From the sequence record PV841871.1: a stretch of DNA of 44,890 nucleotides; one strand, 5' to 3'. The position numbers and the translations under genes are program-made. Positions 10,900-11,150 of the stretch are shown piece after piece. This DNA is from Escherichia phage Ivi. Position 1 is the stretch's first letter. The number at the start of each line of letters is the position of its first letter. Under the pieces are notes generated by a model that was given only the letters and a program-made list of their open reading frames with translations, was not told the DNA's origin and did no database searches.

Positions 10900-10942
10900 A
10901 ACTATTCGAATAGTTGACTTTTCACTGAAAATATGATAAGCT
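10900..10942 (+). promoter_or_regulatory. 16-bp perfect palindrome AACTATTCGAATAGTT abutting a TTGACT-N17-TAAGCT promoter
   Basis: Palindrome 10900-10915 overlaps the -35 (10914-10919); same promoter hexamers and spacing as 43218-43246. Confidence 0.45.
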
Positions 10943-11056
10943 CCACCTGAGCTTGTGAAGTATGAACAAGCGACCGCGGCGCGGGCAGGTAACGGAGCGG
11001 GACGTAAGTCCTGAGTGTAGTTACGCTGACGCGTTCGGAAGGGCCATACTCTATTG
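10937..11056 (+). ncRNA. conserved structured RNA leader element, copy A (paralogue at 43241-43360)
   Basis: About 75% identity to copy B over ~120 nt; hairpins GCUUGU/ACAAGC and GGAC-GUAA-GUCC (copy B has GUGCC-AUUA-GGCAC at the same place). Confidence 0.4.
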
Positions 11057-11120
11057 CTTGTGTAAAAAGTAACTGGTTTACTGAGATTACGCCGTTTCTA
11101 TGTTTAAATGATAAGGACTA

Positions 11121-11150
11121 GCGCCCCGCTTTAAGGCGGGGCTTTACTTA
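11121..11150 (+). terminator. intrinsic terminator or attenuator just upstream of the Rz RBS
   Basis: GCCCCGC-tttaag-GCGGGGC followed by TTTACTTAT. Confidence 0.5.

Follow-up and report, generated by a model that had tools for sequence, protein, structure and literature searches.

The window analysed here, 44,890 nt in length, is the whole of Escherichia phage Ivi (PV841871.1), a complete, circularly permuted 44.9-kb genome of a virulent siphovirus in the genus Kagunavirus, subfamily Guernseyvirinae. Genes were placed through the annotation of phage Schulenburg (99% identical; HHpred- and InterPro-based), and over the 291 bp compared the identity is 99.7% to phage fFiEco02 and 99.3% to phage Schulenburg. 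Two copies of a folded RNA of about 110 nt, each with its own promoter, head long gene blocks in this genome, and both lie at boundaries of divergent transcription (Table 1). To the left of copy A is a leftward RusA-like gene (10270-10791); to its right runs a rightward block of i-spanin, o-spanin, scaffold, major capsid, head-tail connector and tail tube genes, which resumes past a short antisense block with the tail genes and ends at 30326. Copy B lies between leftward replication genes and a rightward block of small early genes, which crosses the ends of the window and takes in the lysis, terminase and portal genes. A small HTH protein (61 aa, HTH_17 family, 42928-43113, - strand) is encoded near copy B.

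Across GenBank phages, copy A comes in two subtypes that share the position upstream of the spanin-head-tail operon: A1, with 180 records from phages of Escherichia, Salmonella, Shigella and Raoultella, and A2, with 269, almost all from Salmonella and including phage Jersey. The layout of promoter, structured leader, hairpin or terminator and late operon recurs among them.

Table 1. Positions of the RNA element, its promoters and the associated signals in the window
Feature	Position	Strand	Description
Overlapping inverted repeats	10895-10913	.	GAATA-AAC-TATTC-GAATAG; adjoins upstream / overlaps P_A -35
Promoter P_A	10914-10942	+	TTGACT (10914-10919), 17-nt spacer, TAAGCT (10937-10942); extended -10 TG(a)TAAGCT
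-10-like repeat	10948-10953	+	TGAGCT; 5/6 match to the -10 hexamer, at about -1 to +5
Copy A P1	10951-10971	+	6 bp, GCUUGU/ACAAGC, 9-nt loop; extreme 5' end of the RNA
Copy A P2	10974-11038	+	long irregular hairpin: P2a, P2b, asymmetric internal loop, apical P2c
Copy A tail	11039-11056	+	conserved, unpaired AAGGGCCAUACUCUAUUG
Spacer	11057-11120	+	A+U-rich; 3' half (11083-11116) GAGAUUACGCCGUUUCUAUGUUUAAAUGAUAAGG
Copy A leader hairpin / intrinsic terminator	11121-11150	+	stem 11123-11142, 8 pairs (7 G-C), tail UUUACUUAU
Strong intrinsic terminator	13515-13536	+	after the major capsid gene, within the late block; conserved in phage Jersey
Bidirectional terminator	17999-18021	.	GGCCCCGAAAGGGGCC then UUUUUCU; after the tail tube gene
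Promoter P_B	43218-43246	+	TTGACT-N14-TG(c)TAAGCT
Copy B P1	43253-43272	+	8 bp, GCUUGUGA/UCGCAAGC, 4-nt loop
Copy B P2	43275-43342	+	apical GUGCC-AUUA-GGCAC at 43301-43314
Copy B tail	43343-43360	+	AAGGGCCAAAGUCUAUUG
Copy B downstream hairpin	43426-43489	+	60-nt compound hairpin, then a run of four U's
Second promoter, repeated class	43526-43554	+	TTGCAC-N17-TACTAT; AATAG-N4-CTATT palindrome over the -10

Promoters, downstream hairpins and the late block

A preliminary description of this DNA had placed a TTGACT-N17-TAAGCT promoter at 10914-10942 and an intrinsic terminator at 11121-11150, and our analysis recovered both there, the latter with the tail TTTACTTATC. Absent from that description is the TG at 10934-35, which makes P_A an extended -10 promoter. 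A simple sigma-70 scan misses P_A because TAAGCT agrees with TATAAT at only three of six positions. With zero mismatches, the window contains TTGACT-N14-TGnTAAGCT at two sites only, 10914 and 43218, one for each copy. Among about 80 distinct A1 and B instances from other phages, the TG and TAAGCT are unchanged while n and the spacer vary, and a single change in the -35 is seen in two; subtype A2 retains the architecture as TTGACT-N14-TGtTACGCT. This class of extended -10 promoter was found only together with the element. Transcription would probably start near G10949 from P_A and near G43251 from P_B.

The TGAGCT hexamer that follows P_A is, by analogy with lambda PR', PalpB and putL, a candidate sigma-70 pause element; lambda PR' and PalpB are known to have sigma-dependent pause elements at the matching early position of promoters served by antiterminators. 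The repeat of the -10 is exact in A2 (TACGCT/TACGCT). A1 and B have a G at the key second position of the hexamer, which makes a pausing role doubtful there. At the upstream edge of P_A, the inverted repeats (CTATTCGAATAG) occur once in the window; GAATA-N3-TATTC is retained in A2 with a different centre and is missing at copy B, and it could possibly be the site of a phage DNA-binding regulator. The promoter at 43526 sits after copy B and before the first gene, at 43588.

The end of the copy A terminator lies 25 nt upstream of the i-spanin ATG at 11168. Its stem is kept by compensation, GCCCTGC/GCAGGGC being replaced in A2 by GCCCGGC/GCCGGGC or GCCCGAC/GUCGGGC. The U tract of this hairpin before the ribosome-binding site (RBS) belongs to A1 only, and the A2 hairpin is not terminator-like. 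Copy B has no canonical terminator, its downstream hairpin being terminator-like only, and four non-homologous hairpins are found at that position among phages. Within the late block, the tail genes start at 20150, past the bidirectional terminator and the antisense gene block, and the roughly 100 nt of non-coding DNA that directly precede them show no visible promoter. Nor does the + strand of the block (11168-30326) contain any other promoter-like site with at least 10 of 12 matches; P_A is the only recognisable promoter for these genes.

Fold, covariation and distribution

The element begins at about +1 of its extended -10 promoter and is 108-110 nt long. From the presumed start, the order is P1, two unpaired bases, P2 and an unpaired tail, and whatever the subtype, P1 begins 2 nt from the presumed 5' end, also where its sequence has been swapped. 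P2, of 65-68 nt across the two copies and about 23 bp, is interrupted by an asymmetric internal loop. In copy A, P2a has 9 bp, two of them G-U, and P2b has 8 bp and a 1-nt bulge; the internal loop reads GGAG on the 5' side and AGUGUA on the 3' side, and P2c (10998-11013) is closed by a GUAA loop. Aligned with each other, 10937-11056 and 43241-43360 match in 99 of 124 columns (8 of them gaps), a local alignment score of 101 where shuffled sequences give 15 +/- 2.3. The similarity that the preliminary description had seen is therefore upheld, at 79.8% instead of its figure of about 75%. Its apical stems, GGAC-GUAA-GUCC at 11000-11011 and GUGCC-AUUA-GGCAC at 43301-43314, are as it gave them. The hairpin GCUUGU...ACAAGC that it ascribed to both copies belongs to copy A only; copy B has GCUUGUG...CGCAAGC, in which one U-A pair has become U-G and one G-C pair is added.

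A covariance model was trained on 11 variants, with members gathered from IMG/VR, metagenomes, genome contigs and GenBank phages; it matches copy B at 43249-43368 with 112 bits. In the alignment of A1, A2 and B together, 93.9% of the cells pair (30-36% once the partners are slid). In this larger alignment the stems are supported by changes on both sides at 18 of the 29 base pairs. Among 37 distinct sequences from viral contigs 95.9% of cells pair, with 11 pairs changed on both sides, and among 28 from metagenome and genome contigs 97.4%, with 10 such pairs; sliding the 3' partners by 1-3 columns reduces pairing in these two sets to 30-44%. The alignments of the two sets are fitted to the model, with some bias in favour of structure. 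The swaps are also plain in the raw sequences, as in the apical stem, which occurs as GGAC/GUCC, GUGCC/GGCAC, GGUGC/GCACU, GGGGC/GCCCU and CACGU/ACGUG, and across more than 60 distinct variants all helices show compensatory changes. P1 is invariant within A1 and B; A2 has UACGCU-UUC-AGCGUA in its place, with four pairs changed on both sides. Since this is an unrelated hairpin, P1 seems to be a structural requirement and not a sequence signal.

The fold can be assigned to the + strand because the two commonest P2a pairs are G-U, where the opposite strand would have A-C. The + strand is also predicted to fold more stably by 12-13 kcal/mol (+ strand, -39.9 and -49.3 kcal/mol with z-scores of -2.0 and -3.9; - strand, -26.7 and -37.6 kcal/mol with z-scores of -1.0 and -2.4). 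The proposal that this is a conserved RNA structure and not a coding sequence is thus strongly supported by the compensatory changes, by the strand specificity of the G-U pairs and by indels that shift the frame. Between copies A and B there is no conserved reading frame, the indels not being multiples of three and all frames containing stops; the sole ORF of copy A (36 codons) has no ATG in copy B and is shifted by the gaps, and a small coding ORF was rejected. Several GenBank records annotate the element as hypothetical small proteins, among them the 36-codon ORF over copy A. A scan for tRNA and tmRNA found none.

Other pairings and a spacer motif were considered as well. The P1 loop (AGUAUG) could pair with the tail (CAUACU) in a pseudoknot, which is perfect in copy A of the window; it was discarded as not conserved because a C-to-G change breaks it in copy A of Schulenburg and it is absent in the B types. 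In the nascent copy A transcript, GGAGCGGG (10994-11001) is able to pair with the 5' arm of the terminator. Mutually exclusive pairing of the riboswitch or attenuator type was nevertheless set aside, as it is limited to copy A, needs P2 to be melted and is absent in copy B. The spacer motif AUGUUUA is conserved, and would encode MFK-stop in A1 and MMFTDIRV-stop, ending at the foot of the hairpin, in A2; this mini-ORF has no Shine-Dalgarno sequence and is not present at copy B.

The covariance model finds matches only in Guernseyvirinae-like phages. Subtype A2, which is far more diverged, was found by searching with the model near homologues of the capsid gene (33-38 bits); it retains the layout of P2 with many compensatory changes, the junction and tail UUCGGAAGGG, a spacer motif and the pre-RBS hairpin. 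Copy B is confined to genomes of the Kagunavirus type, in at least five sequence variants; Jerseyviruses are without it, and Jerseyvirus SETP13 has an unrelated leader of about 300 nt at that site. Pattern scans covered viral, metagenome and genome collections, and their many additional matches (for example in contig L066 and soil contigs) were rejected by the model as chance. Every true member is located on a full-length (about 41-45 kb) Guernseyvirinae-like contig or a shorter fragment of one. No match to the element was found in 5,426 complete E. coli genomes, and a host origin was likewise rejected, the sole 'plasmid' match being a 44-kb phage genome. One further type of phage (L218), with a capsid protein 89% identical, has a highly structured leader of about 290 nt in the same place, which the model does not recognise. 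In one metagenomic contig (L070) the two loci are joined through the element.

The degree of conservation is extreme. Where the DNA of the window can be aligned with that of Jerseyvirus SETP13, identity is about 75%. For the 250 bp that start at P_A and end with the terminator, identity between Kagunavirus and Jerseyvirus is 96-100%, and for the neighbouring genes it is 50-86%. In this one inter-genus comparison, the copy A module is the most conserved noncoding segment, and therefore a useful marker and likely a point of vulnerability. The 52 distinct A1 modules share long invariant runs, with unpaired ones among them as well as the 3' half of the spacer (GAGAUUACGCCGUUUCUAUGUUUAAAUGAUAAGG), which is almost invariant in A1 and still recognisable when A1 is aligned with A2. 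Constant across A1, A2 and B is the helix junction, made up of the base of P2 (UUCGG) and the first part of the tail, and this is the most conserved stretch of the three. Whatever its function, a covariation-supported and so far unannotated RNA family heads the essential late operon in about 450 sequenced phages of Salmonella and E. coli that are candidates for therapy.

Possible functions of the leader

The promoter motif, the covarying fold, its position, the terminators and the extreme conservation are observations. We tentatively favour a leader that acts in cis and enables polymerase to pass the terminators of the 19-kb late block, a reading that we consider possible rather than probable. 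Once host RNA polymerase leaves P_A or P_B, the leader would fold into the terminal hairpin P1, the long P2 and the conserved junction and tail (UUCGG-AAGGG..UCUAUUG); the junction region would stay on the elongating polymerase, by itself or helped by a factor from host or phage, and the polymerase so bound would resist intrinsic terminators. Transcripts from P_A could then pass 11123-42, 13515-36 and ~18000 and reach the tail genes as one transcript of about 19 kb, and those from P_B could likewise override the early modules of the right arm that are bounded by promoters and terminators. Transcription from P_A and P_B, binding to the polymerase and antitermination are what this model predicts. 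Several points argue for it. P_A is the sole recognisable promoter and strong terminators stand at 13515 and 18000; with one promoter and terminators in between, antitermination is the simplest way to express 19 kb. The unpaired bases of the junction are conserved along with the module, as would fit a role in contacting host machinery that is itself conserved. The fold is real, it starts at about +1 of a promoter class specific to the element, there are two diverged copies per genome, as for putL and putR, and the -10 repeat at about -1 to +5 is placed like sigma-dependent pause elements. Finally, no protein of the Q, N or AlpA type was found in the annotation and scans used.

Other observations count against antitermination. 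The A2 pre-RBS hairpin is without a U tract in 269 records, so that a leader terminator is not its universal partner. Since the promoter at 43526 and further ones follow copy B, read-through is not obviously needed there, and Jerseyviruses manage without copy B altogether. The G at the key position of the -10-like repeat in A1 and B weakens the parallel with pause elements. Terminators after capsid genes are commonly passed in part in phages that have no antiterminator, and the block may contain unrecognised late promoters, for example activator-dependent ones. A published Kagunavirus transcriptome (RNA-seq) contains no data at the level of promoters or leaders.

Part of this evidence would fit a different product, a discrete and abundant sRNA of about 200 nt running from P_A or P_B to the hairpin, which would act in trans, for instance through base pairing or titration of a host protein, or be a by-product resembling lambda 6S, with the late genes expressed by leak-through. 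The modules are indeed self-contained, each structured RNA having a strong promoter before it and a hairpin 65-95 nt after it; at copy B, four unrelated hairpins occur in different phages and the genes beyond have a separate promoter, and A1 is conserved over the whole stretch from +1 to the terminator, beyond the fold. We nonetheless think this rather unlikely. The poor U tract of A2 and several B types is ill-suited to a defined 3' end, Hfq-dependent sRNAs typically have a long U run to which the tail of the copy A terminator bears no likeness, no target complementarity was identified, and the essential 19-kb block would be left with no promoter besides that of copy A. Distinctly unlikely, in our judgement, is a 5' leader that governs the stability or processing of the mRNA, with P1 blocking decay that depends on the 5' end, P2 serving as a site of the RNase III type found in the leaders of T7 early genes and lambda N, and the pre-RBS hairpin becoming the protective 5' end of the late mRNA. 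It would account for a P1 that stays 2 nt from the presumed 5' end in every subtype despite its swapped sequence, and for a G+C-rich hairpin about 15 nt before the RBS that is kept by compensation with or without a U tract; moreover, a long helix with an asymmetric internal loop, such as P2, is the general shape of phage RNase III sites. It is rare, however, for stabiliser hairpins to require unpaired nucleotides that never change or an identity of 96-100% between genera, and copy B, lying upstream of another promoter, would not be the leader of most transcripts of the genes that follow.

The conserved unpaired motifs could also be a protein site, in an attenuator or operator where an early phage protein, or a ribosome on the AUGUUU mini-ORF, decides whether the hairpin forms and so times the late genes. 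Conservation of AUGUUUA in both A1 and A2 and the pairing of GGAGCGGG with the terminator arm in copy A speak for such a switch, to which we attach little credence: P2, which is very stable, would have to melt for the alternative pairing, copy B shows neither this pairing nor the mini-ORF, the mini-ORF lacks a Shine-Dalgarno sequence, and no RNA-binding regulator was identified among the candidate early proteins that were scanned. Least probable of all, and very improbable, is that the fold is incidental to an element acting as DNA, be it a recombination linker, a transcription-primed origin or a protein operator. The location of both copies at divergent-transcription boundaries, an A+T-rich stretch after the G+C-rich part, the contig that joins the two loci through the element and a palindrome, AAGCTC-N3-5-GAGCTT, over the -10 to +5 could all be cited for it. 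The compensatory G-U pairs would be A-C mismatches on the other strand, though, the + strand folds 12-13 kcal/mol more stably than the - strand, and the palindrome varies in spacing, which makes it a poor fit to a dimeric operator.

Comparison with known systems

Scanned with Rfam 15 at gathering thresholds, the whole window gave no family match, and permissive searches at both loci reached E-values of 0.6-1 at best, far below gathering scores. The element is thus a new RNA family that matches no described one, with a function that we infer from its sequence and setting. Among structured leaders, the ompA-type stabilisers and the RNase III hairpins of T7 early and lambda N transcripts also combine a 5'-terminal hairpin with a long irregular hairpin before the first gene; they tolerate sequence change, whereas the element keeps its unpaired nucleotides and is near-identical across genera. 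The EAR element of Bacillus eps operons is a structured RNA in a long operon with internal terminators. The conAn RNA of Gram-positive conjugative elements is likewise a structured antitermination RNA in such an operon (PMC8191782), in a system that needs a protein as well. With both, the element shares a structured RNA of about 100-120 nt within or heading a long operon that contains terminators, but the hosts are unrelated and no Rfam family, EAR included, matches in the window.

The lambda nut and rrn boxB-boxA-boxC sites resemble the element in having a promoter-proximal hairpin and a conserved single-stranded leader motif. They differ in that the P1 loop shows no conserved GNRA-like pentaloop, and no boxA is present at the element (GCTCTTTA occurs once in the window, at 33058, far from both copies). 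The sole candidate in the right orientation for an N-like Arg-rich protein, the ORF at 5181-5384, was dismissed as a frame artefact because it spans a terminator (5264-5285) and a promoter.

The preliminary description had compared the layout with lambda PR'-6S-tR', and PR'-qut-6S-tR' does share with the element a strong constitutive promoter, a -10-like hexamer where transcription starts and a leader of about 200 nt. The resemblance holds for A1, with its intrinsic terminator directly before the lysis/structural operon; it does not extend to A2, whose hairpin has no U tract, nor is a Q-like gene evident. The annotation of Schulenburg (HHpred, InterPro) contains no Q- or AlpA-like gene, and PHROGs and Pfam scans of 10 candidate early proteins returned small HTH proteins only; the 61-aa HTH_17 protein was rejected as an AlpA or Q because it is far too small for a nozzle fold. 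Q and AlpA systems rely on a DNA-binding nozzle protein and no conserved RNA fold, unlike the element, where it is the fold that is conserved.

The closest parallel in layout is with put of phage HK022, which, to our knowledge, is the only natural RNA family known to reprogram bacterial RNA polymerase alone and occurs in a few lambdoid phages only. Rfam contains no put family and put was therefore tested directly, with putL and putR of HK022 located from the published numbering. A put model recovers putL with 96.7 bits and putR with 89.2 bits, and gives in the window only a 10-bit noise match at 40717 and none at the element; conversely, a search of HK022 with the element model gives no match at E<=10, and local alignments of the element with put score as shuffled sequences do. 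These two-way model searches and alignments rule out membership of the put family, and the 'HK022 put-like' of the preliminary description stands as a functional analogy alone. The put RNA is about 70 nt long, with a triplex in stem I, an A9-G35 pair and a flipped U28 (Hwang et al. 2022). It acts in cis without protein factors through the zinc-binding domain of beta', which lies at the junction of its two stems, and suppresses pausing and termination. The element, at 108-110 nt and with a second hairpin of 65-68 nt in three segments, is larger, none of the signature residues of put can be placed in it, and its phage is virulent and siphovirus-like, not lambdoid. In common with put, it is present as two diverged copies per genome, just after a strong promoter and before hairpins or terminators; its two stem-loops stand side by side, and conservation is highest near their junction; no dedicated antiterminator protein is evident in either system; and putL, too, has a -10-like sequence early in the transcript.

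If the leader acted as put does, it would do so with a different and larger RNA, and would therefore be an independent invention. In a doubtful but consequential version of the antitermination model, the element would form a second class of antiterminator RNA that needs no helper, with no structural relation to put, and would clamp polymerase at its two-helix junction. A self-sufficient clamp on the polymerase of E. coli and Salmonella over about 19 kb would, if true, explain the near-invariance across genera, and a whole virulent subfamily (about 450 sequenced genomes) would be using an RNA in place of a protein antiterminator. A second, unrelated put-like RNA would mean that control of elongation by RNA alone has evolved at least twice; structural biology would gain a new complex with RNA polymerase, and synthetic biology a compact read-through part of about 110 nt. 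The likeness to put and to lambda is an analogy of layout and possibly of function, and not one of family membership.

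Open reading frames and possibly mislabelled records at the element

The element, a folded leader RNA of ~110 nt found as copies A and B, is overlaid in several GenBank records by small ORFs that are annotated as hypothetical proteins on either strand and are not conserved between the copies; we consider them probably spurious. A different kind of reading frame starts at the motif AUGUUUA in the spacer, which is kept in both subtypes of copy A (A1, that of the window, and the diverged A2) and opens a mini-ORF. In A1 this mini-ORF reads MFK-stop; in A2 it reads MMFTDIRV-stop and terminates at the foot of the hairpin that precedes the ribosome-binding site. 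No Shine-Dalgarno sequence accompanies the mini-ORF, which copy B lacks.

The element also bears on how some database entries are classified. The 44-kb record CP088689.1 was submitted as a plasmid of E. coli but looks like a Kagunavirus genome: it matches the element in two places, the better one at 99.1% identity. Phage SHAK7858 (OR594183.1) is labelled Autographiviridae/Kayfunavirus, yet its element and gene neighbourhood are of the Kagunavirus type.

Coordinates of features in the window and in the records compared (L-numbers)
Feature	Record	Position	Remark
Hypothetical proteins over element	L001	6328-6438	either strand
	L045	351-587	either strand
	L048	405-536	either strand
	L049	442-549	either strand
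AUGUUUA spacer motif with its mini-ORF	window	11101-11115	
	L216	about 2646-2672	
Promoter and ~300-nt leader at copy-B position	L051 (Jerseyvirus SETP13)	35990-36330	
~290-nt leader upstream of spanin gene	L218	1850-2170	
(CACU)n tetranucleotide repeat	L046	about 615-645	length variable
	L070	about 2065-2085	length variable
Inverted repeats GAATA-AAC-TATTC-GAATAG	window	10895-10913	overlapping; about -54 to -36 of P_A
AATAG-N4-CTATT palindrome	window	85, 10818, 20012, 33268, 36886, 39803, 43542	14 nt each
Sigma-70-like sites in post-endolysin gap	window	3435, 3657, 3781	+ strand; 10-11/12 matches
GTTGCCGTAA-containing repeat	window	541-585, 1504-1571, 43404-43434	
Bidirectional terminators	window	17990-18021, 30321-30352	

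Variant and alternative leaders in relatives

At the copy-B position, SETP13 carries a promoter (TTGACA-N17-TAAGTT) and an unrelated leader, which contains hairpins and repeated TTAAGTTACT-like motifs and is followed by the usual second promoter; it may be an analogous yet different leader. The more distant relatives of the L218 type, whose capsid protein is 89% identical, have a very stably folded leader (z -5.2) that opens with two adjacent hairpins, the second tipped by GGCC-GUAA-GGCC. Our covariance model of the element did not recognise this leader, which may be remotely homologous or may have arisen independently as another solution.

Between the SCS44-type copy B and the hairpin downstream of it lies the (CACU)n repeat. 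On a 5.2-kb metagenomic contig (L070 1940-2420, - strand), copy-A upstream sequence is fused to a copy-B-type element body and early genes, the junction falling in the 5' region that the two copies share. The contig is either a recombinant or an assembly chimera due to the element being repeated.

Other repeats, terminators and promoter-like sites of the window

The GTTGCCGTAA-containing repeat is common to two paralogous genes (241-801 and 1222-1623, both phrog_6094). The L218 leader carries it as well, as does the spacer 3' of copy B. The two terminators listed, which end the tail-tube and tail-spike blocks respectively, are 94% identical over 32 nt, and a third, related bidirectional terminator lies at 8666-8697. 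The gap after the endolysin gene spans 670 bp (3320-3990), more than its counterpart in phage Schulenburg, and three strong sigma-70-like sites lie within it.

Possible DNA-level control of promoters

The inverted repeats at P_A, the late promoter of copy A, are absent from P_B, and their first pair is retained in A2 with a differing centre. Their presence and this retention suggest that P_A is under DNA-level regulation, distinct from the RNA element.

The AATAG-N4-CTATT palindrome occurs seven times in the window against 0.02 expected, and most of its copies lie across the -10 of a promoter-like sequence (TTGAC(A)-N17-TATAGT or TTGCAC-N17-TACTAT). It is probably an operator common to a class of host-type promoters. 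We disfavour reading it as a phage-polymerase promoter, because no RNA polymerase gene is among those annotated in the near-identical phage Schulenburg. A "phage promoter" consensus has been reported for phage fBC-Eco01, and the motif that we take as a probable operator matches it.
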